A stretch of 33,761 bases of DNA from Candidatus Calescibacterium sp. (GCA_032249135.1 JAVVGL010000021.1:1-33761), one strand, 5' to 3'; numbered from the stretch's first letter, positions 3-27,700 are shown. The notes: generated from the letters alone by a model not told the origin. Numbers and translations: made by a program.

Positions 3-3000
3 AAAGGAAGGGTTTCTGAGGTTCAAGATCCCAAAGGAAGACCTTTTAGAATTGAGCATTTTGAAGGAAGTGGGAACCAGATTTTTGTTAAGGTTTCAAC
101 AAGGCTTGGTTATTCTCTGGAATATACAGTAGATGAACAGTTTGTTTCAACTTTGGCAGTAAAAGATGAGATAGGAGCTGAAAGAAATTACTCATACGAT
201 GAGAGAGGGAATATAACAAAGTATAAAGATGCAAGAGGGAATGAGTGGAGATATGAATATGATGAAAGTGGAAACCTTGCAAAGATAGAAGATCCTATGG
301 GTTATACTGAGAAGTTTTTCTATGATTTTTCAGATCTTCTCACAGCGCAAGTGAGGAAAGATGGAAATATAGAAAGGTACTTTTACGATAGAGGAAACCT
401 TGTGAGGAAAGTAGATGCTATGGGATTTGAGTGGAGAGGCGAATACAATAACTTGGGACTTTTAGTAAAAGAGGTTTTACCGACGGGTTCTGAGATAAGG
501 TACGAATATGACTCTTTTGGGCATATAAGAAGGAAAATAGATGCACTTGGTAATGTTTGGAAATACGAATACGATGTTTTAGGAAAGCTTGTTTTGGAGG
601 AAGACCCAGCAGGAAACAGAACAAGATATGAATATGATATGTTAGGTAGGATGACAAAGAAAATTGATGCTGTGGGAGGAGTATTAGAATTCAGATATGA
701 TGCTTTTGGGAACCTTGTTGAACAAAAAGACCCTCTTGGGAACACGAAAAAATACTACTACGACTTTTTGGGGAATTTGACAGCAGAGGTAGATCAGGTT
801 GGTAATGTGGCTTTGAAAGAATACGATGCGGAGGGTCAGAAGATAAGGGAGACGGATTTTAAAGGAAATTCTGTTTTGTTTGAATATGATGGAGCGGGAA
901 GACTTGTAAGATATGGCAATCAGCTCGGAGGAGAGACACTGAACGAATACGACAAAGAAGGAAATCGTGTGAGAGTAAGACATCCTTCTGGATTGATAGA
1001 GGAGTCTCAATATGATGCTCTCGGAAGAGTTATTTTCACAAAAGTGTTTGATCCCGGAACTGGGATTTCATACGAGGCAAGATATGAGTATGATGCACAA
1101 GGGAACACAATAAAGATAGAATCAGGAGGGCTTGTGTCAAGATACTTTTATGATGCATTAGGTAGGGTTGTGAAGGAGATAGACCCTGCCGGAAATGAGA
1201 GAACTTATGAATACGATCCTGTAGGTAGGTTGGTAAGGAAAGTAGAGGCAGATGGAACAGAGGTAAGGTATGAATATGATGCGAACGGAAACCTTGTTAA
1301 GGTTGTGAATCAAGATGGAACAGAGGTAAGATATGAATATGATGCAGTGGGAAGACTTATAGCTTTCATAGATGAGGCGGGAGGGAGGACAGAATATGGA
1401 TATGATGGAGTAGGCAGAATAATTTTTATCAAAGACCCATCGGGGGCAATAACAAGGTATGAGTATGATATTGCTGGGAGGTTGATAGCGGTTCAAGATG
1501 GAGAGGGGAACATAACAAGATATGAGTATGATGCAAGGGGGAATGTGATAGCGGTGATAGGACCTGAGGGAGAGAGAACAGAGTTCAAACTTGATGAGAA
1601 TGGTAATGTGGTGGAGATTTTAGACCCTGAGGGGAATATAACAAGATTTGAATATAACAGCATGGGGCTTTTGAGCGCGCAGGTGAGTCCAGAGGGATCA
1701 AGGACAGAATACTTTTACGATAGTGTGGGAAGGTTGATAAAGACGGTATATCCGAATGGTAGTACAGAGTGGTTTGTGTATGATGGATTTGGTAGGGTGA
1801 TATTGAAGGGAGATGCGGAAGGGAGAGTTGTGGGATATGAGTATGATAGCTTTGGGAATCTTGTGAAGGTGATATATCAAGATGGGGTTGTAAATATGTT
1901 TTACGACAATTTAGGAAGGCTTACAAGGAAGGTGTATCCAGATGGGAAGGAAGTAGAATATGGATATGACAGGCTGGGGAGGTTGATTTTTGTGAGAGGG
2001 AGTGGAGCAGAAATAGAGAACGAATATGATGTTATGGGGAGGTTGAAGATGAGGACATTCAAGATTAGGGGAATTTTGCCGGTATCAGTTGAGTATGGAT
2101 ATGATGAGGCTGGGAGGAAGGTTTTAGTTAAGGATTTGTGGGGAGAGACAAGATTTATTTACGATAAAGCAGGAAGGGTAAGATCTATACAATCTGAAGG
2201 CATTAAGACTGATCTTTTCTATGATAAAATAGGCAGAAAAGTTCTAATTAGGTACCCGAATAAGGTAGATGTAAGGTATGAGTATGCAGGCACATGTAAT
2301 AATGGTTGTGAAAAGGCTCGTATCAAAAGTATAGAGATTGTGAAAGGATCAGAAACGTTATGGTACGCAAAATATTTATATGATAGGAGAGGACTTATAA
2401 CCGAAATAGATGAAATAAAAAGAAAAATAACGAATATTTACGATAATTCAGGTCGGCTCACAAAATCAGAAGTTTTTGACAAAGAAAATCCCAAGAAAAG
2501 TTATGCATTTACTTTCAGTTATGATGAGTTAGGAAATAGGAAATTTTTTGAACTTTACTCGCAGGTTGAGGGACTTTTTGACCCAAGATTTCCTCATCCA
2601 AAAGATAAGGAGCCAGTCCTGAAGCATCCTGTGAAAATCAATTATACATACAATAAAGCAGGTAAAATATTGGAGCTTTTATCAGTTAGAACAAAAAATA
2701 ATAAGTTTTGGTACAAAGTAGAGTTTAGCTATAACTTGCGTGGGAAAATCACAGAAAAAAGGGTATTTTTAGATGAAAATATATATGCGACGCGATATAA
2801 TTACGATTTTGAGAACAATTTGGTAGATGTTCTATTTCCTGATGGTCAAAAGATGGAGTTTCTAGTTTTAGAAGGATATATTCTCAAAAGGAGATATATT
2901 GATAAAGACGGAAAGGGAAAGGTATTGTATTTGATATACGATGATGATAAAGTTCTTTTGGAATTGGATGAAGGAGGAAAACCGGTAAAAAGATATGTTC

Positions 3001-3797
3001 TGACAGATTTAGGAGAGATTTTATGGGTAAGAAAATTTAGGGATGAAGGATGTGAGGAGAAAGGGGGCAAGGGAAAGGGAGATAATGATAGGGGAAATAA
3101 TGAAGTTTGTGAAAATAGACGGGAATATGTGTTTTATCATTATGACCATTTTGGTTCAGCGGTTATTCTTACGGATTCTTCAGGTGGGATAGTGGCAGAG
3201 TATGAATACTCGCCGGGAGGAGACATTCTTCGAGCTCAGGGACCTAAAGCTAAAAAGAACTTATATACTTTCAAAGGGAAGGAGTATATTCCTGACCTTG
3301 GGATGTACATTCACAAAAATGCATTATTATACGATCCAAGGATAGGAAAAAAATATAAAGAATGTGAAGATCCCAAGATACCAATTAGTATTGATTGCAA
3401 GACAATAAAGAAAGGCGAAAGAGATGAAAGGATAACGAGGTTTTGTATTCTAACAAGGGAAGCATATGAAAGATTAATACAAGAGATTTCAAAGCCACCA
3501 TATCGTAATAAATGGAGGACTTATGACATTCAAACTTTTAATGAAATTATGCGGCGTAAATATTGGGAACAGAAGATAATGATAAGATTTGAAGAAGTAA
3601 AAAATATGGTTTATGAAGTTTTTGAAAGGGCTGGTTTTGAGTTTAAGGTTGAGCCGTTGCGTAAAAACGGTTGTGCTATTTGGATAGAGATCGTAGAAAA
3701 ACCTTTCTTTAAAACAAACTTACCATGTTTACCTTTTGTTGGATGTCGTGTATTGGTTTGTTACAGAATCACAATAGGTCCTATAACAATTAGATAA
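3..3797 (+). CDS. Rhs/YD-repeat protein (5'-partial) with degenerate core end and ~150-aa variable C-terminal tip
   Basis: Dozens of YD repeats (YEYDxxGxL). The frame is open from base 3 (KGRVSEVQDPKGRP...), so the 153 TTG is not the real start. Rhs core motifs YHYDHFGS...AEYEYSPGG...YDPRIG. Confidence 0.93.
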   Translation, partial: KGRVSEVQDPKGRPFRIEHFEGSGNQIFVKVSTRLGYSLEYTVDEQFVSTLAVKDEIGAERNYSYDERGNITKYKDARGNEWRYEYDESGNLAKIEDPMGYTEKFFYDFSDLLTAQVRKDGNIERYFYDRGNLVRKVDAMGFEWRGEYNNLGLLVKEVLPTGSEIRYEYDSFGHIRRKIDALGNVWKYEYDVLGKLVLEEDPAGNRTRYEYDMLGRMTKKIDAVGGVLEFRYDAFGNLVEQKDPLGNTKKYYYDFLGNLTAEVDQVGNVALKEYDAEGQKIRETDFKGNSVLFEYDGAGRLVRYGNQLGGETLNEYDKEGNRVRVRHPSGLIEESQYDALGRVIFTKVFDPGTGISYEARYEYDAQGNTIKIESGGLVSRYFYDALGRVVKEIDPAGNERTYEYDPVGRLVRKVEADGTEVRYEYDANGNLVKVVNQDGTEVRYEYDAVGRLIAFIDEAGGRTEYGYDGVGRIIFIKDPSGAITRYEYDIAGRLIAVQDGEGNITRYEYDARGNVIAVIGPEGERTEFKLDENGNVVEILDPEGNITRFEYNSMGLLSAQVSPEGSRTEYFYDSVGRLIKTVYPNGSTEWFVYDGFGRVILKGDAEGRVVGYEYDSFGNLVKVIYQDGVVNMFYDNLGRLTRKVYPDGKEVEYGYDRLGRLIFVRGSGAEIENEYDVMGRLKMRTFKIRGILPVSVEYGYDEAGRKVLVKDLWGETRFIYDKAGRVRSIQSEGIKTDLFYDKIGRKVLIRYPNKVDVRYEYAGTCNNGCEKARIKSIEIVKGSETLWYAKYLYDRRGLITEIDEIKRKITNIYDNSGRLTKSEVFDKENPKKSYAFTFSYDELGNRKFFELYSQVEGLFDPRFPHPKDKEPVLKHPVKINYTYNKAGKILELLSVRTKNNKFWYKVEFSYNLRGKITEKRVFLDENIYATRYNYDFENNLVDVLFPDGQKMEFLVLEGYILKRRYIDKDGKGKVLYLIYDDDKVLLELDEGGKPVKRYVLTDLGEILWVRKFRDEGCEEKGGKGKGDNDRGNNEVCENRREYVFYHYDHFGSAVILTDSSGGIVAEYEYSPGGDILRAQGPKAKKNLYTFKGKEYIPDLGMYIHKNALLYDPRIGKKYKECEDPKIPISIDCKTIKKGERDERITRFCILTREAYERLIQEISKPPYRNKWRTYDIQTFNEIMRRKYWEQKIMIRFEEVKNMVYEVFERAGFEFKVEPLRKNGCAIWIEIVEKPFFKTNLPCLPFVGCRVLVCYRITIGPITIR
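1250..1345 (+). repeat. Near-perfect internal duplication of a YD unit (DGTEVRYEYDA x2, 63-nt period)
   Basis: agatggaacagaggtaagRtatgaatatgatgc at 1250-1282 and 1313-1345, one mismatch. Confidence 0.9.
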
Positions 3798-3812
3798 ATA
3801 AAAACAGAAAAA

Positions 3813-4481
3813 ATGAGAAAAATGAAAAAAATCATGGTTTTCACAGTGATCTTATTCTTTGCCCCATCCAAAGTGATAGGAGCAGAAATATTAAGTCCAT
3901 ATAATGCATATTTAATTGAAAAAGGTGAAATAGCATTTGGATTCATCAAATATCCATTAACTTTAGGAATACACGAAAGACTTAATTTATTCCTCTTCCC
4001 CCTAATTTTTCCTTTCGTCAAAATGGCTGGCTTTGGAATGAAAATAAAATTATTTGAGAAAGGAAGTTTTTTCTCATCAGGAGAAATTGCTTACTATCGT
4101 GACTTTACATTACCTGAATCGGGTATGGGAATAATTTCAATTACATCTTATAAGATAAAAGAGGGTAGAATTTTATCGTTTGGGATATTCTTTGCATCTT
4201 TTAAAACCCTTTCTGAAAGTTACAAATTTGAGCATACATATACTTTTGGTGTTGTACCATTTGTACTTGAGATAAAAATCATCAAACAATTAGCTTTTAC
4301 GATCAAATCTTCGGCTCAGATTTCTCCACTTGGAAGCAGATTATCTCGTGGAGAAACTTCTCTAATATCTTCTTTAGTTGTAATATCAGATTTTATGCAA
4401 TTTGAAATAGGACCTGAAATACATAACTTTAAAGAGATTATGGCATATTTTGACCTTGTTTTCAGGTTCAAGATTTTTTAG
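3813..4481 (+). CDS. Exported, probable outer-membrane beta-barrel protein in the immunity-gene position after Rhs tip 1
   Basis: Signal peptide (MKKIMVFTVILFFAPSKVIGA; start may be ATG 3822), alternating hydrophobic strands, aromatic C-terminus YFDLVFRFKIF. Confidence 0.6.
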   Translation: MRKMKKIMVFTVILFFAPSKVIGAEILSPYNAYLIEKGEIAFGFIKYPLTLGIHERLNLFLFPLIFPFVKMAGFGMKIKLFEKGSFFSSGEIAYYRDFTLPESGMGIISITSYKIKEGRILSFGIFFASFKTLSESYKFEHTYTFGVVPFVLEIKIIKQLAFTIKSSAQISPLGSRLSRGETSLISSLVVISDFMQFEIGPEIHNFKEIMAYFDLVFRFKIF

Positions 4482-4486
4482 AAAAA

Positions 4487-5326
4487 ATGAATTTAGAACA
4501 CAAAATTTATGAGATTTTCTCGAGCTCAGCTCAGATTTTTTACGATAGAGCCGGAAGGAGAATACTTTTGAGGTATCCGAATGGTGTAGAAACAAGGTAT
4601 GTCTATGGAGGAAATGGAGGGAATTGCAACGGGAATGGATGCCGAAATCCAAAACTTACAAAAATTGAAATTACATCAGGTGATGGAAAAGTGATCTGGA
4701 ACACAAAATACTCATACTCAAAAGGAGGATTTATAGTTGAGGAAGATCAGATCAAAAAGAAAATAAGATATGAATATGACAAAGATGGACAAATCAAAAA
4801 GGCAGATGTTTTTGTGAAGGAGAATCCAAAAAGAAGCTATGGATTTTTGTTTGAGTATGACAGGGTGGGTAACAGGGTAGCGATGGAGCTTTACTCCCAA
4901 GTTGATGGTTTATTTGACCCACGCTTTCCAAGACCAAAAGACAAAGAACCAGCTTTAAAGCATCCTATAAGATTTGAATACGCATATAACAGAGCAGGAG
5001 AGATTTTAGGATTTGTAGCAAGAAGAACAAAAGATGGATCATTTTGGTATTCAGCAGAGTTCAAGCATGATTTGAGAGGGAACGTTTCGCAAAAGAGAGT
5101 AATTTTGAGTGATGGAAATTCATACACAACAAATTACCTTCATGATTTTGAAAACAGGCTTTGGAAAATTTTATTCCCAGGAGGCGAAGAAAGTGAGTTT
5201 TTGATACTTGAAGGGTTAGTTTTGAAGCGGAGATATCAAGATGAAGAAGGGAAGACGAAAGAGATAAACTTGATTTATGATGGAGATCAAGTTTTGTTAG
5301 AGTTAGATGAGAAGGGGGGCCAATAA
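4487..5326 (+). pseudogene. Orphan Rhs module, 5' fragment (frameshifted at G6 run 5314-5319)
   Basis: Colinear with the Rhs1 distal core (YSQVDGLFDPRFPRPKDKEPALKHP vs YSQVEGLFDPRFPHPKDKEPVLKHP). One extra base restores LDEKGGPIKRYVL, matching Rhs1 LDEGGKPVKRYVL. Confidence 0.85.
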
Positions 5327-5337
5327 AGAGGTATGTT

Positions 5338-6696
5338 TTGGGAGTTGAAAGAGATGAGATATTGTGGGTGAAGAAGATAAGGCAAGATGATGAAGATGGG
5401 GAAGGAGTAGGAGACAAAGGCAAGGGTAAGGGTAAAGGCAAAGGAAAAGGAGGTGAGAGAAGAGATTATATTTTCTACCATTATGATCATGGAGGGAATG
5501 TGGTGATTTTGACAGATTTTTCAGGGGATGTGGTAGCGGAGTATGAGTATTCACCGTTTGGAGAGGTGTTAGAGGCGCAGGAACCCGAGGCAAAAAAGAA
5601 TAGGTTTTTGTTTGCGGGGAGATACTACATATCAGAGGGAGGGATATATGATTTTAGGGCGAGGATGTTGGATGGGAAGCTTGGGAGATTTTTGGAAAGA
5701 GAGCCCTTAGTAGGAGAGAGGATGGGGTTTTTATCTTTATATTCATATGCGAGGAACAACCCAGTAAATTTCAAAGACACAACAGGACTTTATTTTGAAA
5801 GTGTGAGAAATTGGGCAGAAGATACATTTCGGCACTGTTTAACTGCTTACTTAAATTCAGTTGCACTGAATGGTATACCATGTATGGATCATAGAATAAG
5901 TTGGGCTCCCGCTGGTGTGGGGGATGCATTCAGATTATTGCGAAATGTAGCGCGTTCTTTTCATCCTCTTCCCGATAACATATGGAAGGGAAATGGGCTC
6001 GGTGTAATAGCAAAAAATAGATTCTGGAGCCAATTTCTCCCCAGGCTAAAAGATAGCATGATAAGAATGGTAAATGAGGAAAGAGGCAGATTCAAAAGAG
6101 CTATTGACAGATGGTGGATACCATCATCTACCATAAATAGAATTACTAATGAATACGTTTTCAATAATATTGAAAGAGTTATTCGCAATTTACCTCGTAG
6201 AACAGATATTATTCTTCCAAGTAGCAAAAAAGAAGAAATGAAAGCAGGATTAATAGGAGGGCTATTAGGAGGTGGAGCAGGTGCTGCAATTGCTGGGGCA
6301 TTATCGTTATCCCCACCACTATTTATTGTAGCTACAATTTGGAGTTTTATGATAGGTGAAGTAATAGGGAAAGCGATTTATAGGTGGCTTGCAAAAGAAG
6401 TTGAGAGGATAGCGCGTCGGGAGGCGGACAAACTTCAAAAAGATTTACTTTCCCTTATTGTAGGAAATTATAGAGTTAAAGTTATTGCACTTTGTTTCAG
6501 GGGATGGAATACAGAATGTATACCCATAGAGATTCCTGGTCTTGGTCCTTTATCATCTTCTTTTGTTGCTTACTTTGATATTCTACCCTTCCATCCAACT
6601 AACTATATTTATCACTATTCCGCAAAAGTTCTCTTCGGTGTAGAAGCTCTTAACTTTTACAATACACTAAGATATGAATGGGGGTTATCATGGTAA
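5338..6696 (+). CDS. Orphan Rhs module, 3' fragment: Rhs-associated core plus ~300-aa tip with glycine-zipper hydrophobic hairpin (putative membrane-active toxin)
   Basis: YHYDHGGN, YEYSPFGE, GRFLEREP, YSYARNNPVNFKDTTGL. Tip contains AGLIGGLLGGGAGAAIAGALSLSPPLFIVATIWSFMIG. Confidence 0.85.
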   Translation: MGVERDEILWVKKIRQDDEDGEGVGDKGKGKGKGKGKGGERRDYIFYHYDHGGNVVILTDFSGDVVAEYEYSPFGEVLEAQEPEAKKNRFLFAGRYYISEGGIYDFRARMLDGKLGRFLEREPLVGERMGFLSLYSYARNNPVNFKDTTGLYFESVRNWAEDTFRHCLTAYLNSVALNGIPCMDHRISWAPAGVGDAFRLLRNVARSFHPLPDNIWKGNGLGVIAKNRFWSQFLPRLKDSMIRMVNEERGRFKRAIDRWWIPSSTINRITNEYVFNNIERVIRNLPRRTDIILPSSKKEEMKAGLIGGLLGGGAGAAIAGALSLSPPLFIVATIWSFMIGEVIGKAIYRWLAKEVERIARREADKLQKDLLSLIVGNYRVKVIALCFRGWNTECIPIEIPGLGPLSSSFVAYFDILPFHPTNYIYHYSAKVLFGVEALNFYNTLRYEWGLSW

Positions 6697-7433
6697 GGTT
6701 TGCTTTTTTGCTAAAATCCGTTATTCTTCTGGCTTTCCCTATTTTTTCTCATATTAGAGCAGAAATGAAAGGAGATCCTTTTACCGATGTTATAGTGGCT
6801 GGAGTAGAATCTGCCGTTGCAGATTTTCTTATACCAAAATTCAAACCTGTAAGATTACTAAGTCTTCATAGAGGATATTTTTTACCGGGATGGGAGGAAG
6901 GAAAATCTTTGACAATAGGTTATTCATTTGCTATTGGTGCGGAAGGTTCTCATCCATTTCTTTTCTCTGTTTCCTTCAACAGAACTTATGAAAGAGTAAA
7001 TCTTGAATTTTCGGTTTGGCCTATTTCTTTCCAGTTTTTGCCAAAATTCAGACTCATCCGTATAGGTAACATAGGAGGGCTTGCTTTTGGAGCAGGTCCA
7101 ATTTTAAGCTTCTCAAAATTCCCGATATCAGGAGAATTTTCTTTGGATTTGATTTTGAAATCAAGATCCCCAGGAGTAGTTGTATTTTTTGGTCTTCGCT
7201 TTATGGATAATTTGATTGAAGTAAATGAAAGTGTAATTACTCCTTACGTTCCAATATACAATCTCAGAATAATATTAGGTTATGCCCTCAGTATTAAAGA
7301 TAAGTATAAGAGATATTTTTCTGATAAATTCATCTTAGATAAGTTTATTCTTGAGCAGCAGCTTTTAGGGTTTGGAGAAAGTGGAGTGTTTATGCTTTTT
7401 GGATTCGCATTCAATATACGCTTTACTGATTAA
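6690..7433 (+). CDS. Exported, probable outer-membrane beta-barrel protein in the immunity-gene position after Rhs tip 2
   Basis: Overlaps the Rhs2 stop; GGGGG precedes ATG 6690 (alternative ATG 6678). Signal peptide MVRFAFLLKSVILLAFPIFSHIRA, amphipathic strands, ends FGFAFNIRFTD. Confidence 0.55.
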   Translation: MVRFAFLLKSVILLAFPIFSHIRAEMKGDPFTDVIVAGVESAVADFLIPKFKPVRLLSLHRGYFLPGWEEGKSLTIGYSFAIGAEGSHPFLFSVSFNRTYERVNLEFSVWPISFQFLPKFRLIRIGNIGGLAFGAGPILSFSKFPISGEFSLDLILKSRSPGVVVFFGLRFMDNLIEVNESVITPYVPIYNLRIILGYALSIKDKYKRYFSDKFILDKFILEQQLLGFGESGVFMLFGFAFNIRFTD

Positions 7434-7462
7434 TTATTAGAGAATAAAAGAAAATTTTTATT

Positions 7463-8119
7463 ATGAAGGCTAAAAAATCAAAATTTGTAATGGTAACCTA
7501 CTTTATCATTCAGATCACAGTTTTTGTATCTGCGATAATATTATTCTCATGTGCGGCAAGTAGAGAAGAGTTAATCGAACAATATGAAAGAAAGGAAATA
7601 AGAGAGGAAAGTTGCGATGGAAAAGATGAAAATGAAAATGGGTTGATAGATGAAGGATGTCTCTTGTGGTATTACGAATTCCAATCGAGAAATTGGTTAT
7701 ATTCACCGAAAATTTGTTCAAATAGAACAATAGTACTATTTTCTTGTTCTCCTTCTTACAGCAATGAATATGTTTCCTCAGTAACAGTTTATGGATTAAG
7801 ATTAGATGATGGAAAGATAGCATGGCAATATAGTATTAGGGTTAAAGATTGTTTTTTGCCACTATCTTATGATCATCCATTAGAAGTTTCAGATTTATAT
7901 GGTGATGGGAAGGATGAAGTAATAATCAGTTATGGTCAAGAAAAAGCTTTAGATGTAATAAGTTGTGACGATGGAAAGCTTCTTTGGTCCTTCAAGGAAG
8001 ATGGGCAAAAAGAAAATCATCCATTTATCTTCTTCAACGGTCCTTATGTAGAAGATATAGATTATGATGGAAAAATTGAGATAGTAGTAAAGAGAGCAAA
8101 CATAATAGGATGGAGATAA
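7463..8119 (+). CDS. Lipoprotein with MopE-like metal-binding motif and PQQ/FG-GAP propeller blades, N-terminal fragment of a split gene
   Basis: Lipobox ILFSC; EESCDGKDENENGLIDEGC; DLYGDGKDEV and DIDYDGKIEI; DGKIAWQY and DGKLLWSF. Confidence 0.7.
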   Translation: MKAKKSKFVMVTYFIIQITVFVSAIILFSCAASREELIEQYERKEIREESCDGKDENENGLIDEGCLLWYYEFQSRNWLYSPKICSNRTIVLFSCSPSYSNEYVSSVTVYGLRLDDGKIAWQYSIRVKDCFLPLSYDHPLEVSDLYGDGKDEVIISYGQEKALDVISCDDGKLLWSFKEDGQKENHPFIFFNGPYVEDIDYDGKIEIVVKRANIIGWR

Positions 8120-8129
8120 GCTCTATATC

Positions 8130-8891
8130 TTGAGCTGGAATGGACAGATAAAAGAGGTCTATAGTATAAATTTAACCAATTTCATTATCTTACCTATCTT
8201 TAAACCTTTAGGCGGAGATATTGACGGAGATGGTAAAAAGGAGATAATTCTTTTGGGGTTTTTTCAAAAAAGTACTACTAACGAGATTACAGAAACCTTA
8301 AAAGACAAAATCTATGTAATTGGTAATAATATTGTTGCAATTGATATTAGTCATATAACTGGTGATTTTCATGCACCACCAGTAGCGGAAGATATAAATT
8401 TTGATAGGAAGGATGAAATAATAATTCCATTTTTGGTGGAAATATATGTTATTGATGGAAAAGGAAATGTAATTTGGAACTTTGATAAGGTGGGAGGAGA
8501 AATTTTAAGTCAACCTGTGGTTTCAGATATTGATTCAGATGGGAAACCCGAAATACTTTTTATCTCTCGTGATGGAAAGATAAAAGTTCTGAATGGAGAA
8601 GGAAAATTGATTTCCGAATATGAAGTTTGGAAGAGGGATGAGATAGTAGAGGTAGGAGCTTCATCTTTGGCATTAGTTGATATTGATTTTGATGGCAGAA
8701 AAGAGATTATAGGTTGGACAGATGAAGTTTTTATGATAAGGAATGGAGTTAAGGTATGGAACTTTATAGTTGGTGGTCCTAAAGGAGATTTTGAACCCCC
8801 TCTTGTTGTGAATGATGATGGAGATTTTAAGATTGTTGTAACATTTGCAAACAGAATTTATACTCTAAAAGCAGGAAAAGTGAAAAAATGA
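8130..8891 (+). CDS. FG-GAP/PQQ-like beta-propeller, C-terminal fragment of the same split gene
   Basis: DIDGDGKKEI, DINFDRKDEI, DIDSDGKPEI, DIDFDGRKEI. The frame is open back to 8109 (DGDKLYILSWNG). Confidence 0.7.
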   Translation: MSWNGQIKEVYSINLTNFIILPIFKPLGGDIDGDGKKEIILLGFFQKSTTNEITETLKDKIYVIGNNIVAIDISHITGDFHAPPVAEDINFDRKDEIIIPFLVEIYVIDGKGNVIWNFDKVGGEILSQPVVSDIDSDGKPEILFISRDGKIKVLNGEGKLISEYEVWKRDEIVEVGASSLALVDIDFDGRKEIIGWTDEVFMIRNGVKVWNFIVGGPKGDFEPPLVVNDDGDFKIVVTFANRIYTLKAGKVKK

Positions 8892-8910
8892 ATAACAAAC
8901 TTGGGCTATT

Positions 8911-9864
8911 TTATTTTGTTTCTGTTTTCGGATAATTTGAAAAAAATGAATTTTTTTGAGCTGATGGAATAAGAATTAAAACCTGGGTTCCTTTATTCTG
9001 TTCAGATTTTATTTCTATTTTTCCTTTGTGTAATTCAATTATTTTCTTTGCTGTGCTCATGCCAAGTCCCATACCTTTTGGTTTTGTTGTGAAGAAAGGA
9101 ATAAAAATTTTGTTGAGGTTTTCAGGTGGAATTCCACATCCTGAATCCTCTATTTCACATCTTATAAACCCATCTTCCGTGTCAGTGGTTCTGACTAATA
9201 TTTTTTTCTCCTTTGAGTTTTCAAGGCTTTCTGCCGAGTTTGTAATTATATTCAAGAAAGCTCTTTTGAGCAGGAACCTATCCCCTATGACGAAAACTCT
9301 ATCTGAATTATACTCTCTTTTTATTTCAAAATCGTAATGAAATACATAACCTTTTAACTCTTCAATTTCAGATATAGCATCTTCTATTATTGATTCTATA
9401 TTTTCGGGGTTTCCCACAATTTCTCTGCCTTTTATAAATATTGTGACATTATCTATTATTGTCTCTATTCGTAAGAGAAGGGACTTTATAATTTTCATGT
9501 TCTCATCTTTTATTTGAGATGATAAAATCGCATTTTTCAGAGCAAAAAATGGATTTTTTATTTCGTGAATTATAAATGCTAACATCTCTTGCATACCCTT
9601 ATATCTTTCCTCTAAAAACAAATCCTCAAATTTTTCTCTGATTATTTTCAGAAGCTCGTCATAGCTTACAAAAAGTTTCAAATTTTTTCCCTCGTCTTTT
9701 ATCAGGAAAACAAGGTTTTTGGGATCCGATATATCCAAGAATACTTTTTCAGAAGGAAAAGAAACAAGAAAATCTTTTTCTTTTTTTTTCGTATTTTCCA
9801 TTCTATTTCTTTTTCTTCCTGTAAAGCTTGGTTTTTTCTCTCTATAAAATTTTAAAATTTTCAC
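8911..9864 (-). CDS. Soluble sensor histidine kinase (HisKA + HATPase_c)
   Basis: H box IIHEIKNPF, N box FLNIITNSAES, G1 IEDSGCGIP, F box IFIPFFTTK, G2 GMGLG. No TM segment. Start may be ATG 9801. Confidence 0.92.
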   Translation of the reverse strand: MKILKFYREKKPSFTGRKRNRMENTKKKEKDFLVSFPSEKVFLDISDPKNLVFLIKDEGKNLKLFVSYDELLKIIREKFEDLFLEERYKGMQEMLAFIIHEIKNPFFALKNAILSSQIKDENMKIIKSLLLRIETIIDNVTIFIKGREIVGNPENIESIIEDAISEIEELKGYVFHYDFEIKREYNSDRVFVIGDRFLLKRAFLNIITNSAESLENSKEKKILVRTTDTEDGFIRCEIEDSGCGIPPENLNKIFIPFFTTKPKGMGLGMSTAKKIIELHKGKIEIKSEQNKGTQVLILIPSAQKNSFFSNYPKTETK

Positions 9865-12714: not shown

Positions 12715-13185
12715 ATGAAACTGCAAAACCTTAAAAGCTTAAAGTCTGAGGAGCTTGATAAACTTTTTATAGAGGGAGTAGCTCCATCACAAGATGAACT
12801 TCAAGGTTTTTTTGCCGGAATAGCTCTACCTCAGACCACAAAAACTTTTCTCCCAAGAGCCTTTGAAAAATTCGCTATTTTCGTAGGAGATAAAATATGG
12901 AAAGGAAAGGTTTTTATGAAAATAGATGGTGAGATAAGAGGAGCGAATATATTAACTGACTTTAAAATCCCTGCTTTTCCTTTTAAAGTTGAAGAGAGTA
13001 TTTCTTTTCTTGATGGAAAACCCTGTTTTGTTCTTAATTACCGTGTCTTTCCTAATCCTTTTCCAGTTGTTTTCATAAGGGATGAGGTAAGAAAAATAGG
13101 AGAAAGACTTTATCTTGGTGTTATGTTCTTTTACCCGGTGGTTTTGAAAATTCCTTCAATTTATTTCGGACTTGAGAAGATTTAA
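12715..13185 (+). CDS. Hypothetical protein
   Basis: Clean ORF (ATG 12715; the track starts at TTG 12697) with WKGKVF and LNY...NP...IRDEVR...LYLG motifs that look like a conserved uncharacterised family. Confidence 0.6.
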   Translation: MKLQNLKSLKSEELDKLFIEGVAPSQDELQGFFAGIALPQTTKTFLPRAFEKFAIFVGDKIWKGKVFMKIDGEIRGANILTDFKIPAFPFKVEESISFLDGKPCFVLNYRVFPNPFPVVFIRDEVRKIGERLYLGVMFFYPVVLKIPSIYFGLEKI

Positions 13186-14233
13186 AGATAGGGAACAAGA
13201 TGAAGGCGTACAAAAAGGTAAAGGTAGCATTCAGAAAGGTTTAATTTTGGAATTAGCAACAAAGTTATATTTTGAAGATAAATTCCCATCGGCTAATATC
13301 AATTTCTGGAAAGATTGGGCAAAATCAAGAGGTTTTGAACATCGGGATATAGGAGTTGATCTTGAAATAGAAATAAATGGTGATTTATGGGCTGTCCAAA
13401 CCAAAAATTGGAAAAATAAAGTGGATTTGAGTGATATAGGAACGTTTTTAGCGTGTCTATCGGATAAGGATTTTAATTTTAAAAGAGGAATTTTGGTTAC
13501 TACATCCGGTCTAGCTAATAAAGCAAGAGAGCGATTACCTAACATTAATCTGCAAAATAGGGATATTATTGTACTAGAAATCGTTTGTTGTCTATCTGAT
13601 TTCACAGTGGATAATATAGATATACCGGCAAAAAATATATGGAAAATAAAAAGTTTGGATTTCCATAAATATCTTGAAAAGGCAAAAGAGTTATTAAAAA
13701 TACAAGGCTCAAAGGAAGATATATTTGGCCCATTATCAAATACTTATGATGAAACAACTTTTAATATTCAATTGCTTCACTTGAAGAGTATATTTAACGA
13801 ACTACGGATAATGATAGAACATGAGAAAAAGGAAAAAGTTGAAATAGGATTGGTTTTACAGAAGCTTAAACAGAAGTTTGACCATTTTAGGCATTTAGAT
13901 GACAGGACAGTAAAAGTTGTTTTATGCGATGATATGCTTTATTATACATCGGCGAGAAAGTATCACTATAACTTTACAAAAGCAAATGTCTTTTTTTATT
14001 TGACACAAAAGAATTTGACAAATATAGATTTAGAAGTGATTATAAGTGCCTGGAACAAGAAAAGGAAAGATTTAGAATCCTTGAGAAAAATGAGAATTGA
14101 TAAGAAAATGGAGATTGTAAGGCTGTGGTATGGCCTTTTAGAAGACTTTTCATCTCGTTTTATGAGAATCCCCGAAAGGGTTAGGGAAAAAATTCAAAAT
14201 TTATCCCAAATTGGTAAGGAAGATTTCGAGTAA
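13172..14233 (+). CDS. Mrr-like (PD-(D/Q)xK) restriction endonuclease domain fused to an unrecognised helical C-terminal domain
   Basis: FWKDW...RDIGVDLEIE...WAVQTKNW...DIGTFLA...GILVTTS matches the Mrr_cat_2-type motif (DxGIDL...AIQxK). No helicase or methyltransferase motifs follow. Confidence 0.75.
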   Translation: MRRFKDREQDEGVQKGKGSIQKGLILELATKLYFEDKFPSANINFWKDWAKSRGFEHRDIGVDLEIEINGDLWAVQTKNWKNKVDLSDIGTFLACLSDKDFNFKRGILVTTSGLANKARERLPNINLQNRDIIVLEIVCCLSDFTVDNIDIPAKNIWKIKSLDFHKYLEKAKELLKIQGSKEDIFGPLSNTYDETTFNIQLLHLKSIFNELRIMIEHEKKEKVEIGLVLQKLKQKFDHFRHLDDRTVKVVLCDDMLYYTSARKYHYNFTKANVFFYLTQKNLTNIDLEVIISAWNKKRKDLESLRKMRIDKKMEIVRLWYGLLEDFSSRFMRIPERVREKIQNLSQIGKEDFE

Positions 14234-20767: not shown

Positions 20768-21772
20768 ATGAAAGTTCTCGTAACAGGAGGAGCAGGCTTT
20801 ATAGGTTCTAATTTAGTTCATTATCTTGTTAAAAATTATCCTTCCTGGAAAGTAATAGTTTTAGATGCACTAACTTACGCTGGGAATCCTGAAAATCTCC
20901 TACCAGTAAAAGATAAAATAGAATTCATAAAAGGAGATATATGTGATGAGCAGGTAGTAGATGATATAATGAAAAGAGGGATAGATATTGTATTTCATCT
21001 TGCAGCAGAATCTCATGTAGATAGATCAATTTATGAGCCTCCAAAATTTTTGAGAACAAATGTTTTCGGAACTTATAACTTGCTTGAAATCGCAAGGAAA
21101 CGAGGAGTTGGAGTGTTCGTTCATGTATCAACAGACGAAGTATATGGTTCAATAAAGAAAGGGTTTTTTACAGAAAAATCTCCGATGAACCCCTCATCAC
21201 CTTATTCTGCATCAAAAGCAGGTGGAGACCTTATAGCGCAAGCCTATTGGAGAATGTTCGGAGTACCAGTTATAATTGTAAGACCGTCAAATAACTATGG
21301 TCCATACCAGTATCCTGAAAAATTTATTCCTCTTTGCATAACGAATGCTCTTGAAGATAAACCGATACCAATTTACGGTAAGGGTTTGAATGTAAGGGAT
21401 TGGCTGTATGTAGAAGATTGTGCGGAAGGATTAGTTTTGTGTGCTCTCAGAGGTAAAAAAGGGGAAATCTACAACATGGGAGCAGGTCAAGAGAAAAGGA
21501 ATATAGATGTAGCAAAAACAATTTTGAAAAAACTTGGAAAACCTCTCAAACTCATCACCTTCGTAAAAGATAGACCAGCCCATGATTTCAGGTACGCGAT
21601 GAAGTCAGAAAAAATAAAAAAAGAGGTAAAATTTAAACCTAAAACAAAATTTGAAGAAGGGATAGAAAAAACAATAAAGTGGTATATTGAAAACCAAAAT
21701 ATATGGAGAAAAATAAAGAACTCTCCGGAATTTGAGGAACACAAAAGAAGAATCTATGGAGACCTATTTTAG
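20768..21772 (+). CDS. rfbB: dTDP-glucose 4,6-dehydratase
   Basis: TGGAGFIGS, DALTYAGN, AAESHVDRSI, VSTDEVYG, YSASKA, DRPAHDFRY. Confidence 0.97.
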   Translation: MKVLVTGGAGFIGSNLVHYLVKNYPSWKVIVLDALTYAGNPENLLPVKDKIEFIKGDICDEQVVDDIMKRGIDIVFHLAAESHVDRSIYEPPKFLRTNVFGTYNLLEIARKRGVGVFVHVSTDEVYGSIKKGFFTEKSPMNPSSPYSASKAGGDLIAQAYWRMFGVPVIIVRPSNNYGPYQYPEKFIPLCITNALEDKPIPIYGKGLNVRDWLYVEDCAEGLVLCALRGKKGEIYNMGAGQEKRNIDVAKTILKKLGKPLKLITFVKDRPAHDFRYAMKSEKIKKEVKFKPKTKFEEGIEKTIKWYIENQNIWRKIKNSPEFEEHKRRIYGDLF

Positions 21773-24700
21773 TTTGTATTTGTGATTTCGGTTATTACGC
21801 AGGATACTCCATAAAAAGAGTAAGATAAAAATATGAAACACAAAGGCTAACAGAGAAACAGAACAACCTACCGGTTTTGAACCAAAACCTGTACTATCTT
21901 GAAATTCTGAAAAGATTTTATCTGCAATACCTCCTTTTTCAGTATCAGCAAATCGCGGAGCAGGTGCTGTCGTCTTCCTTATAAAAGAGAAAATACAAAA
22001 CTGGGTCGATGGGTAATTCGTATCAATATATGTAAGAACAACATCAGTAAATCCATCTTGATTTACATCTGAAACTTCTATATCTGGCAATCCAATCGGT
22101 CCAAAGTTGAAAGGTAAGCCCGAATGATAAGATGAGGTTTCTCTTGCGTAACCATTAGAGCCAGAAATAGTTGATGGGTCTCCAAAGCTGAGATCAAAAA
22201 ATTCTGCTCCACCATAAGAACCGAAAGCGGTCCAAATTATATCAGGAACACCATCTGAATTCATATCTTCAACTTCAAGGGAAATATTGTTCAAAGGTGA
22301 TATTATTTGAGCATTCGCAGTTGATTGAAGAGCAAACGATAAATTCGCAGGTGTTGAATTATTCTTATAAAGATAAAGTATTTGGTCTTTTGATATAACT
22401 ACTATGTCATCTTTCCCGTCGCCGTCAAAATCAGCTGTATCTAATGAGGCAGGAGTTATAGAGTTCGGCAGAGTAAATGTTACGGCAGAAGCAAAACCAG
22501 AAGAAGTTCCGAGCTTAACAAAGAAATAAAGGAAATCAAGATTTACACCTACTATATCTAATTTCCCATCTTTATCTAAATCAACAAATTTAGCCCTTCT
22601 TACCCAACCTTCAATTTCAGGAAATGTTATAGTACCAGAGAATGTTCCATTACCATTACCGTATGCGAAAAAGCTAAGACCGGAGCAACCAACAAGAATA
22701 TCTTTTTTACCATCTTGATTTACATCAGCTGATTGAATATCATAAGGGAAGCAGTAATCTGAGCCTAAATTGATTTGCGATGAAGCAGAAAAACTGAAAC
22801 TTGAACCAGAATTTTTGTAAAAGTAGATATAGGTTTCTATTCCTGAGGCACCAAAAAAGACACCAGAAAGAACAACATCCTTTTTCCCATCTCCATCAAA
22901 ATCATCAATTGCGAATCCAGATTCTATACTATGACCCGGAATAGCAGAATAAGAGGCGCTGAACTGAAATGTTCCCGAAAGTGTTCCTGAGTTTCCGTAA
23001 AACACAAAGAAAGACTGCTTTGGCATAGATGTAATTACAATATCTCGTATCCCATCGCCATTAACATCAGCAACCTTAAATCTATCATCATTTATAAACT
23101 TAAATGTAGTTCCATCGTTAGGGAAGCAGGTTGATATAGGAGTAAAGTAATCAGCTGAGTGATATTGCCGAGCTACATATATTTGAACCTGCGCAGTAGC
23201 ATAGTTAGAATTACCACAGCTATTTACAACTTGAACTCTTGCTGTAACTTGCTTTGAATAAGAAGAATAATATGTATATTGAGTTGTGTTAGATGGAGTT
23301 GTTTTATCTATAATACCGTCTCCGTCAAAATCCCATCTATATTCAGAAATTGGGAAGAGAGATGTAGCAGTAGCTTGTAAAGTTACGGTCAAAGGAGCAT
23401 AACCTGATGTTGGGTTTGCGTAAAGAGAGACTTGCGGTATATCACATTCTGGTTGAGCCAAAATAACTATTCTTAAAGTTTTCGTATCTGTATCTCCATC
23501 TGAATCGTAAATCGTGATGCTTGCTGCATATTCTCCTGCTGATGAATATCTGTGGGTTATAGATGGTGATGTTGTTTCCTCTTTGTATCCATCTCCAAAA
23601 ACCCAGACATATTTTGAAACTTCAAAATCATCTTCTGCGATTACAGATAAAGTGACATCAAAAGGAGCTACGCCAGATGTAGCTGATGCCGAAAAGCTCA
23701 AAATACGAGGTGGTGAATTCAGAACCTGAATCGCTATGGGTTGCGATACTATTTCAGAACCTATATCTGTTATAACCGAAACTTTTGGATAAAATGTTCC
23801 AGCAAATCTTGGGTTATAAAAGTGGGTGACTGAGTTTTGAGTTGTTTCCGTTCCTGATAAATCACCAAATCTCCATCTATATTTCAAAGGTGTAGAGGAT
23901 GTTGAGACTTCAAACTTTACAACTTCTTTTCTTTTCACTTGTGTTTTATCGGCAGAAAAAGATATTATTTTGAATTCAGGGAAAACCTTTATATTTACCG
24001 AGTCGCTTGCTTCTATTCCGTCCTCACTTTTCACTTTTGCAGTAATTTTGAAATCTCCTTGCTCTTTGAGTTCAACCACAACATAATTTGAGTATGTTTT
24101 TATATCTTCTTTGCCGTCTCCGTTTGTATCAAGAGATATAAAACCTGCGAAATCTTTTGCGTCTATTCTCAGTCCCACCTTCAAAGGAGCGTGTCCGCTT
24201 ACCTTATCAGGATATATTTTCACATAAGGTGTTATTGGATTATTTTTGACCTTTATATTTATTTTCTTTTGAACACAGTTCCAGTCCCCATCACACACGC
24301 TAAAATTAACATAAGATAGTGTATCTTGATTTACTCTACCTGTGTATAAAATCGGAGAAAGAGAGTAAATATTGGAAAGAGAAAAGGAATAATTATTCTT
24401 ATAATCACTAATCCAAGCTGAAAATCTCAATTCTTCTGGTGATGAATCCGGGTCAGAGACTTTTATCTCGAACGGCACATAAGTCTTTTCATCAAATTCA
24501 TAATCAACCCCTTCTTTGAGCTCCTCACCTTTTGCGAATATAGATATAGAAGGTTTCTCTGTTATAACCTGAACAAATTTACATCGTGAGTCGGATGAAA
24601 AATCATCAGAAACATAAACACATATATATGAGCTTCTTTTGAGTGTAAAATCTATGCTATCACCTTGACCTATATCTTTGGAGTAGGAAAAATAAGAACC

Positions 24701-27700
24701 CTCTTTCCACAGAACTTTTGGATTTTTTCCTCCTGTATATGAAACGGAAAGTTTAGCTTTTTCATTTTTCTTCAGAGAATCTGGTACCGAAAAGTTAGTA
24801 ATACGGATAGGAATTTGCAGAACTATTTCTCCTAAATCTAACTCTCCGGAGCTAAGATCAGACGGCAAAGACACAACTTTTGGAGAGCTTAATCCATAAG
24901 CTGATATAGTAATTTCTTTTTCCGCCTTAAAATTTACCTGCCAAGACACTGAGAAAGTTCCATCTTGGGAAGAGGAAATGCATTTTCCTTGGGCAGAAGT
25001 CCATAAACATACCAACTCGTCAGGTATAGGTTTTTTAGCTTCATCTACTAATTTTCCTTTTATTTTTAATGTTTTTATTGGTAAGACGACTTTTCCGATA
25101 TAAAGATAGGGCTTTTTCACTTCTTTTGACCAACCATAAAGTTCGTAATGAGATGAAGATGATTCAACAGGAGAAGGAATATCTAATAGGTTAAAGCCCA
25201 AAGATGTTTTCAGGTCCAGCGCCTGACCGTTTACAAGTATCTTTGACCTTGTTTCACCTCCGACCCTTATTCCGGGAGCTGGGACATAAGCTATTATGCG
25301 TGAAGATGTTTCTACATATTGAACTTTTTCGTTGCTTTTTGGAGTGCAGACATACTTTGAAATCTCCTGCGAAAAAGAGCAGTCCATAGGATTTTCAGAG
25401 TTTGAACATACATAGTAATTTTTATCTTGAATGAAAGAACATCTCACAGCCCACAATCTTTCGCCAAAATATGAAGAACCTCCCTTTACTATTTCATCCA
25501 TTTTGAAAACAAAATCAACAAAAGAACTCAACATTTTAAAGAAGGTTGTAATATCATCTGCATAAACATCTAATGTGGTAGTTCCCGATGTAGATGTCTG
25601 CTTTGGCTGAACTCGTGGCAAGCTAAAAACTTGATAAGATAATTGAGCTTTTGGGGCAGCAGATGGTTGAGGTCCCATAGGAAACGGGAAAAATGGAGCA
25701 AATAAATCTTTACACTGAATAGGCACAACATTTTGAGCTCTTAAAAATGCATTGAAATCTTTATGGAATCTATCTATATAAGGTTGAATGGTTTCCCAAG
25801 CCTTTGCTGATTTCCATTCCCTATGCTCTCCCCAGGCTTGAATAGCCTGAGCTCCGAACATACCAGCCGTCTGAGCAAGGAAAGCTAAGCTACCAAAAGT
25901 TTTTTCTGCAACTCCTTTCAAAAGCCCTCCTATTGCTGAGCCTGCCGATCCTAAACATTCAAGAGTTTCCTTACTAATGAGGAGATCAGTAGTTTTATAT
26001 ATGATGTTTTGAATAATATTTTCCGGGTTTGTAAATTGCGCGGCTAATGCCTCGGCAGGATCTTCTCCTTTCGCAATAGCAGCTGCGGCATTAGACATAA
26101 AATCCTTAAAAGCTCCTAAACCAACAAATTCATTTATGGCTGCTATGGCTGCCCTTCCACAATTAGAAAAAACACCGCTCTCAACAGCCTTGCTTATGGG
26201 ACCCCAAAGCACACCGTATATATCATCAACTATAAGAGATACGAGCTGTGCTTTTGCTTCCTTACCTATTTCATCCCATCTCTCATAGAATATTTGGTCT
26301 GATGAAGCTCTGCCTATGGGTTCAAGTCCTTTTTGCACAGCCTTTATATATCCTAGAGCATTCTTAAAATCTTCTTTGATATTTCCACTACCAAAATCAA
26401 GCGCTGCTGATGCCTTACTCAAGGCATTCCTATGAATGGTATATGTATTCCCGTCTATTAACCCGTTCAAATAAAGGTTAAAAAGAGCATCTTTCATAGC
26501 CTCAATATCACGTGAAAGAATACTTCTGTAATTATTTATTATATCGTTGCAGTTCACACCACCTCCACTAGGATCTCCGTCTGGCGGAATTTTATCTGGA
26601 ATACCGTTGAGGTAATCATCATAAGGACCAAACATTTTTCCTTTTGATGGATTATCATGAACGGGATCGCTCTTTTTTACATCTACGCCGGCAATTCCAT
26701 TATTATCTGTGGATGACCCCCAATCGCCACCGCCATAAGTATTTCCTTGTGAAGATATGCGAAGACCAGAGACAGGGTTTCCATCACTATCAACAAATTG
26801 TGCAACCACAGATGCGTGAGACGAAACAGGGTAATCAACATTCCAAGATGAAAAATGTTCAACTTTTGCATAGACATAAAGCTTTTTGGTTTCTTTTCCT
26901 AAAACTATTTTTGCAAGCTCTGTAGGCTTTATTGCGTTCCCGTTTTCATCTTGTAAAATTCCAAGCTCCTCTCCTTGAATCCATACACCTTTTATTTCAT
27001 CGTAGTACCACATCGGAACTTCAACTAAATCTGTGGTTTCATTAACATAGTCATAAAGTGTGTGATATACATCTTCTGGGATTTTCATTCTCAAAGTCGG
27101 TTTTTTGACTTCTGCTTGTTTTCCCTTCAACCTTGCTATTTTTGGTGCGAAAGTTGATATAATCTCACCTTTTTCATCTTGGAGCTGAATAGATAAGAAT
27201 CCAGCAGATGATAATGTTATAAAACCTTTTTCTGAATCGGGTTTATATGCCAAAAACGAACCCAGCATAAGTTCAGGTTGAGAAGCAGGATTGACAAATG
27301 CTACACTTCCGGAAATTTCTTTATAGTCTGAAACGAGCTCCGGTGGTATTGATACCTCTGCTATGACTTCTCCACCTTCTTGTTTTGCGAAAATTCTTGA
27401 GTTCTTTGCGTCTTTATCTGCAAGAAGAATTGGAGCTCTACCTGGAACTGAAACCAAGGAAAACTGTGCACCATCTTTTAAGCTTGAATCTTTTTGCATA
27501 GCAGCTTTTGAAAGCTTTATATCTCGGAAGCCAGGACCATCCAAATGTAATGAGTTTTTAGCAAATCCTTCTTTTGTAACATCAACCTGAATTCTACCTG
27601 TAATTATCCTACCTGTTATCATTCGTCCGGTTAGCATTTCTGATTGGGTTTGAGATAGCCTTGCTGTTATCAATTTAGAATCTATGAAGAAAAATCCGCT

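Follow-up and report, generated by a model that had tools for sequence, protein, structure and literature searches.

The window analysed here is a contig of 33,761 nucleotides (nt) from Candidatus Calescibacterium sp., an uncultured bacterium of hot springs (GCA_032249135.1, JAVVGL010000021.1:1-33761; contig C21), taken from a 2.1-Mb assembly that is 87% complete. Its 5' part carries on the plus strand an Rhs gene truncated by the window's 5' end (Rhs1, 3..3797), an open reading frame (ORF) of 222 amino acids (aa) here called ORF A (3813..4481), an orphan Rhs module in two frames (4487..5326 and 5338..6696) that ends in a variable tip, Tip2, a second ORF of 251 aa, ORF B (6678..7433), and a gene for an FG-GAP propeller lipoprotein (7463..8891). 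Our subject is the relation of ORF A and ORF B to the Rhs tips that precede them. An earlier note on this DNA had described both as proteins of 220-250 aa with Sec signal peptides directly behind Rhs tips, and in this it was right. ORF A follows the end of Rhs1 by 16 nt and ORF B overlaps the end of the orphan module, and each opens with a charged and then a hydrophobic stretch that leads to a cleavage pair read (by eye, as for all signal peptides and cleavage sites given here) between IGA and E in ORF A and between IRA and E in ORF B.

ORF B occupies the immunity slot of Tip2 (5794..6696; 300 aa). It overlaps the end of the orphan module (6696) by 19 nt, or by 7 nt (ATGGTAA) if its start is the fifth codon, and on the sequence is translationally coupled to Tip2. 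For context we used 16 metagenome loci, three of them identical to the window, together with a second copy in the same assembly (contig C46), and for the cassette itself seven Tip2-ORF B cassettes. Between these the identities of Tip2 and of ORF B co-vary (Spearman 0.70, Pearson 0.82 over 21 pairs, which are not independent of one another). While the shell and core of the orphan module stay 81-97% identical between strains, ORF B falls to 59% or lower and Tip2 ranges from 35 to 95%, the tips forming three types that are 35-42% identical to one another. The ratio of nonsynonymous to synonymous substitution rates (dN/dS) is 0.28-0.72 for ORF B and 0.28-0.73 for Tip2 versus 0.14 for the orphan shell, and the varying cassette is bounded by the Rhs core at one end and stops short of the FG-GAP gene at the other. 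Module switching is shown by the presence of the same tip family on full-length Rhs proteins in other strains, a type II tip ending a full-length Rhs in locus L020; a leaderless Rhs fragment of 922 aa in L012 has a type I tip at its end.

Some ORF B genes have no tip. Two that differ in type stand in tandem in L011 and again in L013, with no tip separating them, in one RNA-library contig the end of an ORF B is joined to an ORF B start, and two ORF B types are present in the window's own assembly, one on C21 and one on C46. These tandem and tip-less genes favour a dominant protective role for ORF B over that of a delivery helper or a receptor allele, so that of the roles which the earlier note had offered for a barrel in this position immunity is strengthened and those of receptor and of export or anchor partner are weakened. 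The gene behind the tip of an Rhs cassette is expected to vary in step with that tip and to turn up as an orphan too, which is true of ORF B and not of ORF A. Both are real genes: the ORF B frame is open in 18 further copies (49-94% identity), and ORF A differs from its copy in L014 by 16 nt with 2 residue changes (dN/dS 0.04). Relatives of ORF B fall into 15 clusters (49-98% identity), and a genome-collection scan with 56 pattern stretches gave no confirmed relative. RNA-library contigs span ORF A, the Tip2-ORF B junction and the FG-GAP gene; such contigs may contain DNA and are thus not proof of transcription, and the parts they leave uncovered are uninformative.

The shell part of the orphan module (4487..5326) starts 6 bases after the ORF A stop, lacks a leader and shares 55% identity with the corresponding region of Rhs1. 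It is separated from the rest (5338..6696) by a 1-nt deletion in a G run near 5317 (5310-5325) relative to L008 and L014, a deletion with which DNA run X2 agrees, and in L014 the module is a single 742-aa ORF. The second frame contains a canonical core (TIGR03696, 62.1 bits versus a cut-off of 32.5) with a DPxGL-type boundary motif (...NNPVNFKDTTGLYFES) followed by Tip2, and matches of this frame in the PDB are confined to residues 38-166, which are the Rhs core. Tip2 varies in its N-terminal half, carries a Gly/Ala-rich hydrophobic stretch and is conserved in its C-terminal domain. The hydrophobic stretch (6244..6372) comprises about 45 residues (tip residues ~151-193), the length of a helical hairpin, and reaches our criterion for a membrane helix (Kyte-Doolittle mean of at least 1.6 in a 19-residue window) in six of the seven variants, the seventh being a partial tip with a maximum of 1.56. 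In the alignment all seven share, within the C-terminal domain of ~110 aa, the motifs EKLQKDL and LGPLS as well as two His and a pair of Cys, and the kept Cys pair suggests that Tip2 works outside the cytoplasm. Tip2 has no match in Pfam, NCBIfam or PADLOC and none in the PDB beyond the Rhs core, two weak matches of unknown function in PHROGs (E 7e-4 and 2.7e-3), and no confirmed relative in a genome-collection scan with 53 pattern stretches.

Natural short forms of the tip were seen in two settings. In L020 (7824-8579) an FG-GAP leader and 125 residues are fused to a type III half-tip with a type III ORF B behind it, and contigs of three RNA libraries from three studies (X16, X17 and X18) open with 28 bases of the Rhs leader region (L008 166-190) and continue in frame at window position 6252, tip residue 153 by our count, with ORF B following. 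From these forms we infer that the C-terminal half of Tip2 would be the working toxin unit, and the fusions of a leader to a half-tip may be shell-less mini-toxins or recombination scars.

ORF A evolves differently. Its probable start is the second ATG at 3822, exactly where homology to other strains begins, and it is 98.6% identical in L014 and L022, where it stands behind a different Rhs, whose shell is 39% identical and whose canonical core leads into an HExxH-type tip, and behind an exported ORF of 430 aa. Because of this conservation behind a different tip, the start of homology at the second ATG and the low dN/dS, we regard ORF A as part of a conserved block with the downstream orphan module; it is to this module, as far as such comparisons tell, and not to the upstream Tip1 that ORF A is tied, and it may be a left-over immunity gene or a common helper. 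Relatives of ORF A are near-identical copies or fragments of such copies, with none under 77% identity: a search of 5.8 billion proteins gave three, and one of 1.84 billion representatives gave three that are real; an 820-aa protein (P0020, E 7e-4 to ORF A) proved to be a repeat protein with a 31-residue match and was judged a chance hit. Among seven genomes of the phylum, each 82-87% complete, ORF A, ORF B and Tip2 each occur in one, the window's own, and the two ORFs are confined to this lineage. The earlier note had held the two ORFs to be distantly related and the locus to be one repeated cassette of tip and outer-membrane protein. Neither idea survived, as the best BLASTP match between them has an E value of 4.3 and the hhalign probability is 0.12%, and ORF A retains its sequence behind another tip and another ORF.

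In both ORFs hydropathy windows of at least 1.6 lie only within the first 9 start positions, so that there is no membrane helix in either mature protein. The mature parts contain 13.4% Phe in ORF A and 12.6% in ORF B and no Cys, and in composition the two ORFs are near the BamA barrel of the same genome and unlike its soluble beta proteins, with an aromatic content of 17.7% (ORF A), 17.2% (ORF B) and 18.4% (BamA barrel) and a charged content of 19.8%, 19.5% and 20.4% respectively. The one-face hydrophobic coverage is 0.51 for ORF A, 0.45 for ORF B and 0.45 for the BamA barrel; in the soluble set it is 0.22 for the FG-GAP propeller, 0.09 for a 382-aa exported Rhs partner and 0.26 for a solute-binding protein. 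A barrel heuristic placed ORF A and ORF B at the 99.3 and 98.5 percentile among 895 ORFs, mostly through composition as judged by shuffles. Since seven high-scoring small signal-peptide proteins tried as controls for this heuristic gave in Pfam just one weak OMP_b-brl match (E 5e-4) and one DUF3996, BamA is the sole secure barrel control. The barrel assembly machine itself is present (Omp85/BamA, E 3.8e-45 in an 802-aa frame, and a second Omp85).

The beta-signal of outer-membrane proteins is a C-terminal motif that ends in an aromatic residue. ORF A does have an aromatic last residue, as noted earlier, and its end (...FRFKIF) resembles those of other putative outer-membrane proteins of the genome (...SYLKF, ...YIKRF and ...SHRF); in ORF B, which closes with FGFAFNIRFTD, the aromatic residue is third from the end. 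AlphaFold2 run on ORF B with 15 close relatives produced 11 strands in hairpins after the signal peptide, with one more N-terminal helix, at a low mean pLDDT (the model's own confidence measure) of 36, and the amphipathic beta-strands claimed for these ORFs are only weakly confirmed. In the ESM Atlas ORF A scores 0.96 to clusters named outer-membrane beta-barrel, one of which has PF13505 in 19% of its members, and ORF B scores 0.92 to unnamed clusters and 0.88 to an OMP_b-brl cluster; we treat both as leads only. A match to a known immunity family, which the earlier note would have counted against its idea, was found for neither ORF in Pfam (E up to 10), NCBIfam, PADLOC or PHROGs, and neither these ORFs nor the third partner family described below had a PDB match by sequence or profile (E up to 10). 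As PF13505 matches nothing in the genome, the family library hardly covers this lineage. Taking these features together we lean towards an outer-membrane barrel for ORF A, and for ORF B consider the chances evenly balanced.

Upstream, the repeat shell of Rhs1 is evident from RHS_repeat (PF05593, E 4.5e-134, 19 stretches) and YD_repeat (TIGR01643, E 3.2e-113) matches. The full-length protein, 2035 aa in the identical metagenome locus L008, begins there with a hydrophobic lipoprotein-type leader (...LFLIFSC followed by QKESKS, read as a lipobox), after which come a propeller-like region and DUF6531 (E 9.7e-8). No PAAR domain is present in this N-terminus, and the type VI sheath family VipB/TssC has no match in the 87%-complete genome. 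A type VI-delivered Rhs effector would have a PAAR- or VgrG-linked N-terminus and a type VI apparatus in its genome, and these searches gave no sign of either. Its core (in the region 3003-3797) stops at YDPRIGK with the PxxxxDPxGL end missing; TIGR03696 does not match it, nor is it among the genome-wide matches of that model. The remaining 148 aa are Tip1 (3351..3797), 34.5% charged and without a family in Pfam (E up to 10), NCBIfam, PADLOC or PHROGs. Because the Rhs1 core breaks off and fails TIGR03696, Tip1 is not a canonical self-cleaving tip, and the truncated core with its charged tail may be a recombination product rather than a releasable toxin. In an RNA-library contig of run X17 the Rhs leader region is joined at window position 3734 to the last ~20 codons of Rhs1 right before ORF A, which suggests strains that have lost almost all of Rhs1 and retained ORF A.

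Elsewhere in the genome exported partners of Rhs are the rule. TIGR03696 cores above the cut-off number ten in the window's own genome, one in one relative and none in the other five, and all five other Rhs loci of the genome have signal-peptide ORFs downstream. On C5 and C1 the Rhs genes have tips of the HExxH type, and behind each tip come two exported ORFs of 382-443 aa that are propeller-like; the Rhs on C39 is followed by a 474-aa exported ORF. An exported family of ~380 aa (L012:386-1522, C46:2752-3144 and C5:4277-6625) stands behind the HExxH-type tips, with copies and remnants behind FG-GAP genes in other loci, a scatter that resembles the pattern of orphan immunity genes. Arrays of orphan units lie at the contig ends C8:1-6312 (L024) and C3:117594-126892 (L025), each unit made up of a core and a Cys-rich tip (300-495 aa) and followed, with an overlap where this was checked, by a signal-peptide protein of 158-203 aa that ends in LGLYLGYSW or LGLYLGYSF. 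This third partner family has 11 copies of ~40-77% identity, some of them tip-less within the arrays, and a congeneric genome holds a complete copy and a broken one. In hhalign it shows no kinship with ORF B or ORF A (probability 0.5% and 0.4%), and its alternating pattern exceeds that of shuffles (2-9 of 300 reach it), unlike those of ORF A and ORF B. As three unrelated families occupy the slot, the pairing of Rhs tips with small exported proteins of barrel-like character recurs in this organism, with partners that share no kinship.

The tips of these arrays share weak, sub-cut-off matches to VWA7_N over a 20-residue motif (five of five tips tested, four from the arrays and that of C39), and the two tips read, one array tip and the C39 tip, contain HxxQDxxxHSN. 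This motif resembles the Het-C signature HxxxDxxxH (PMC3482391). The Het-C model of Pfam had no match in the window's own genome, a search that is uninformative as its control matched nowhere. A Het-C-like identity of the C8, C3 and C39 tips is put forward tentatively, from the sub-cut-off VWA7_N matches and the reading of the motif.

Behind ORF B the FG-GAP gene (7463..8891) has a leader ending ...ILFSC and is split by a frameshift into 7463-8119 and 8130-8891. DNA run X2 shows the same split. A base at 8108 is missing from contigs of three RNA libraries, a loss that would restore the frame, and the gene is intact on C46 (489 aa, FG-GAP_3 E 4.3e-21) and a single frame also in L010. Its N-terminal half is the more variable (50-57% versus 68-71% identity). 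The type of the FG-GAP gene does not track that of ORF B, an ORF B of 94% identity standing beside an FG-GAP gene of 55/71% and one of 71% beside an FG-GAP gene of 96/93%. The pair occurs in at least three chromosomal settings, with HK/GT downstream in the window, RtcB in L011 and other genes in C46/L018; in L011 the RtcB-like gene lies on the opposite strand after the array of DegP-like gene, ORF B genes and FG-GAP gene.

When 3300-9100 was scanned for promoters and terminators, shuffled sequences yielded more sites than the real one and no terminator separated the genes; a repeat search of the stretch returned YD repeats only. Farther along the window, at a distance of 13 kb from the Rhs locus, the minus strand encodes (21764-27964) a 2066-aa protein that combines FG-GAP repeats and PKD domains with a weak match to TcdB_toxin_midN. 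Amid housekeeping genes there is a gene for a protein with an Mrr-type restriction endonuclease domain (13172-14233).

We read the stretch as the 3' end of an envelope-acting Rhs polymorphic-toxin locus in which ORF B would be the exported cognate immunity protein of Tip2, probably an outer-membrane barrel, and judge this reading about as good as an even bet. Action in the envelope is argued from the lipoprotein nature of Rhs, the missing type VI sheath match, the Cys pair of all seven tips and the hydrophobic stretch of Tip2. ORF B would be exported, fold as a small outer-membrane beta-barrel and meet a membrane-active Tip2 in the envelope, where it would block insertion or passage of the tip, whether this had leaked from the cell's own Rhs or arrived from a neighbour. 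Colicin immunity proteins act by contact within the membrane, and by analogy ORF B might play in the outer membrane the part that helical immunity proteins play against pore-forming colicins in the inner one. ORF A, in the same slot behind Rhs1, would probably be an outer-membrane barrel too, one not homologous to ORF B. Of the polymorphic system at the outer membrane that the earlier note had proposed, the polymorphic Rhs, the exported partners and the pairing of ORF B with its tip are supported; the part of that proposal which does not yet stand is the barrel fold. A bolder version, which we offer tentatively as the less probable, is that in this deep-branching hot-spring lineage no fewer than three mutually unrelated families of small barrels (the LGLYLGYSW proteins, ORF A and ORF B) were recruited as outer-membrane immunity to lipoprotein Rhs toxins with membrane- or lipid-directed tips, that a leader plus the C-terminal half of Tip2 would be a bare-lipoprotein toxin unit, and that the system would be a thermophile counterpart of outer-membrane-borne kin-discrimination toxins.

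Several observations weigh against an outer-membrane immunity role. Co-variation of adjacent genes such as Tip2 and ORF B could stem from linkage alone, given also the dependence among the pairs. The link to Rhs that a neighbourhood survey of homologues was to reveal is there in part, as a Tip2-type tip lies upstream of ORF B in just seven arrangements (the window, L012, L014, L017, L020 twice and L022), and in three loci (L011, L015 and L023) a DegP-like gene is followed by one or two ORF B genes and the FG-GAP gene with no Rhs; in L013 and the L018/C46 type it is a truncated Rhs shell that abuts ORF B. All ten ORF B arrangements with downstream DNA end at an FG-GAP gene or a piece of one, a link that is tighter than that of ORF B to its tip and is unexplained. 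In the third family the identities of tip and partner are uncorrelated (Spearman -0.16 over 21 pairs from C8 and C3), and ORF A, conserved behind an unrelated tip and with so low a dN/dS, is unlike a polymorphic immunity gene. As to the fold, the sole model is of low confidence, Pfam, NCBIfam and the PDB are silent at E values up to 10, ESM scores of at least 0.9 are by the tool's own figures attained by 4-10 in 100 shuffled proteins, and ORF B runs two residues past its last Phe, with ...FNIRF followed by TD or PD in most copies. The one-face coverage is reached by 59 of 1000 shuffles for ORF A and 119 of 1000 for ORF B, and the period-2 hydrophobic moment by 40 and 45 of 300; the latter test has little power, because the BamA barrel is itself marginal in it (11 of 300).

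The main rival keeps the immunity and drops the outer membrane: ORF B, possibly together with ORF A, would be a beta protein that resides in the periplasm, either soluble or attached to a membrane, and meets the tip in that compartment, which we think unlikely though of some weight. All of the cassette evidence fits it equally well, and it accords with the want of a confident fold or an outer-membrane protein family match, with a residue alternation that stays within composition, with the exported, propeller-like and apparently soluble partners of other Rhs loci in this genome, and with periplasmic immunity proteins of several folds in print (PMC12419801). It is harder to square with a composition and one-face coverage that match the BamA barrel and not soluble beta proteins, with ~13% Phe, the lack of Cys and the aromatic C-termini, and with the 0.96 of ORF A to named outer-membrane barrels in the ESM Atlas. 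If the proteins are barrels they could still be helpers that hold, expose or pass on the lipoprotein toxin, as has been proposed for SitB, a role that we rate as rather improbable. Here Rhs too is a lipoprotein, and SitB has a type I signal sequence, a predicted transmembrane beta-barrel and a gene that overlaps the toxin gene, and raises delivery (PMC5562445); no other immunity candidate lies between Tip2 and ORF B, and ORF A with its low dN/dS behind a changing tip fits the role better than ORF B. ORF B is downstream, varies with the tip and evolves fast, whereas SitB is upstream and homologous between cassettes with unrelated toxins (PMC5562445). Tandem tip-less ORF B genes and ORF B loci free of Rhs make no sense for a delivery partner, and the cassette would be left without any immunity gene.

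Improbable in our view is a separate outer-membrane module, made up of a barrel (ORF B) and a lipoprotein propeller (the FG-GAP protein), whose function would have nothing to do with the toxin and next to which Rhs modules would simply be prone to insertion. Such a module would account for the FG-GAP gene after the last ORF B in ten of ten arrangements and in at least three settings, for the three Rhs-free loci behind DegP and for the other Rhs loci of the genome, none of which has an FG-GAP gene downstream. Against it stand the overlap of ORF B with the stop codon of the tip and the agreement of ORF B type with tip type, not with FG-GAP type, and ORF B is duplicated in tandem where the FG-GAP gene is not. 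That the FG-GAP gene is frameshifted in the window population means moreover that the pair is not essential. Least credible of all is that ORF B is the outer-membrane target of Tip2-type toxins, with a resistant allele travelling with the toxin gene as in BSAP-1 of Bacteroides. A polymorphic barrel-like gene does adjoin a polymorphic toxin tip, and strains free of Rhs retain ORF B; a sensitive allele would however be dominant, and yet two ORF B types stand on one contig in L011 and in L013 and two are found in the window's assembly (C21 and C46), which could mix strains.

Compared with known systems the locus is a variant of the Rhs toxin-immunity cassette, in which the cassette anatomy is known and the lipoprotein Rhs with exported, barrel-like partners is what differs. 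It shares with Rhs and CdiA cassettes (Poole et al. 2011, PMC3150448; PMC3482391) a YD-repeat shell, a conserved core, a variable tip and a small downstream gene, as well as an orphan module of core, tip and partner behind the main gene, a tip found on full-length genes elsewhere, and partner genes without a tip. It departs from them in that its Rhs is a Sec-exported lipoprotein with neither PAAR nor a type VI sheath match, its partners are exported and barrel-like, and the main Rhs of the window has a truncated core. Most immunity proteins described by Zhang et al. (2012, PMC3482391) are cytoplasmic, with few transmembrane, secreted or lipoprotein cases. The premise of the earlier note, that this slot normally holds a cytoplasmic, inner-membrane or lipoprotein protein, was thus too narrow, given secreted and transmembrane immunity proteins in print (PMC3482391) and an exported partner at every Rhs locus here.

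Among barrels encoded next to a lipoprotein toxin, SitB of the SitBAI system of Myxococcus (Vassallo et al. 2017, PMC5562445) comes closest. There too a lipoprotein toxin does without a dedicated injection machine, and its overlapping operon also encodes a small protein that has a type I signal sequence and is predicted to form an outer-membrane barrel. SitB is by its description an upstream, conserved accessory, and a separate cytoplasmic SitI protects against the nuclease tips, unlike the barrel-like ORF B, which is in the immunity slot, polymorphic and the sole immunity candidate; the one SitB-like trait of ORF A is its conservation behind different tips. With the immunity to pore-forming colicins and CdiA ionophore toxins (PMC3482391, PMC11630599) the locus would share a membrane-inserting toxin countered by a membrane-embedded partner encoded downstream. 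Those partners are helical and of the inner membrane, the Imm-CdiI of CdiA ionophore toxins having two transmembrane helices (PMC3482391), whereas ORF B has no membrane helix after its signal peptide. In BSAP-1 a toxin gene lies beside a variant gene of its outer-membrane target that decides sensitivity (Roelofs et al. 2016, PMC4999547), and there the receptor allele is replaced, while here ORF B alleles accumulate in tandem. Envelope-acting effectors are met by periplasmic immunity folds (BamE-like, jelly-roll and four-transmembrane; Burroughs et al. 2025, PMC12419801), which likewise serve, exported or fixed to a membrane, against toxins active beyond the cytoplasm; no outer-membrane barrel is among these folds. 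We found no outer-membrane barrel acting as an immunity protein in the open-access literature searched.

Immunity to polymorphic toxins has been described almost wholly as binding in the cytoplasm, with few periplasmic, lipoprotein and helical inner-membrane cases. The locus offers three unrelated, tightly defined tip-partner families with natural cognate and non-cognate alleles. Should the partners prove to be soluble proteins of the periplasm, what is left would be new families of immunity proteins against Rhs tips that act on the envelope. If they are protective outer-membrane barrels, the outer membrane would be a site of specific toxin neutralisation, and Rhs proteins would be seen to function as lipoproteins exported by Sec, with no injection machine, in a lineage represented by just seven species-level genomes.

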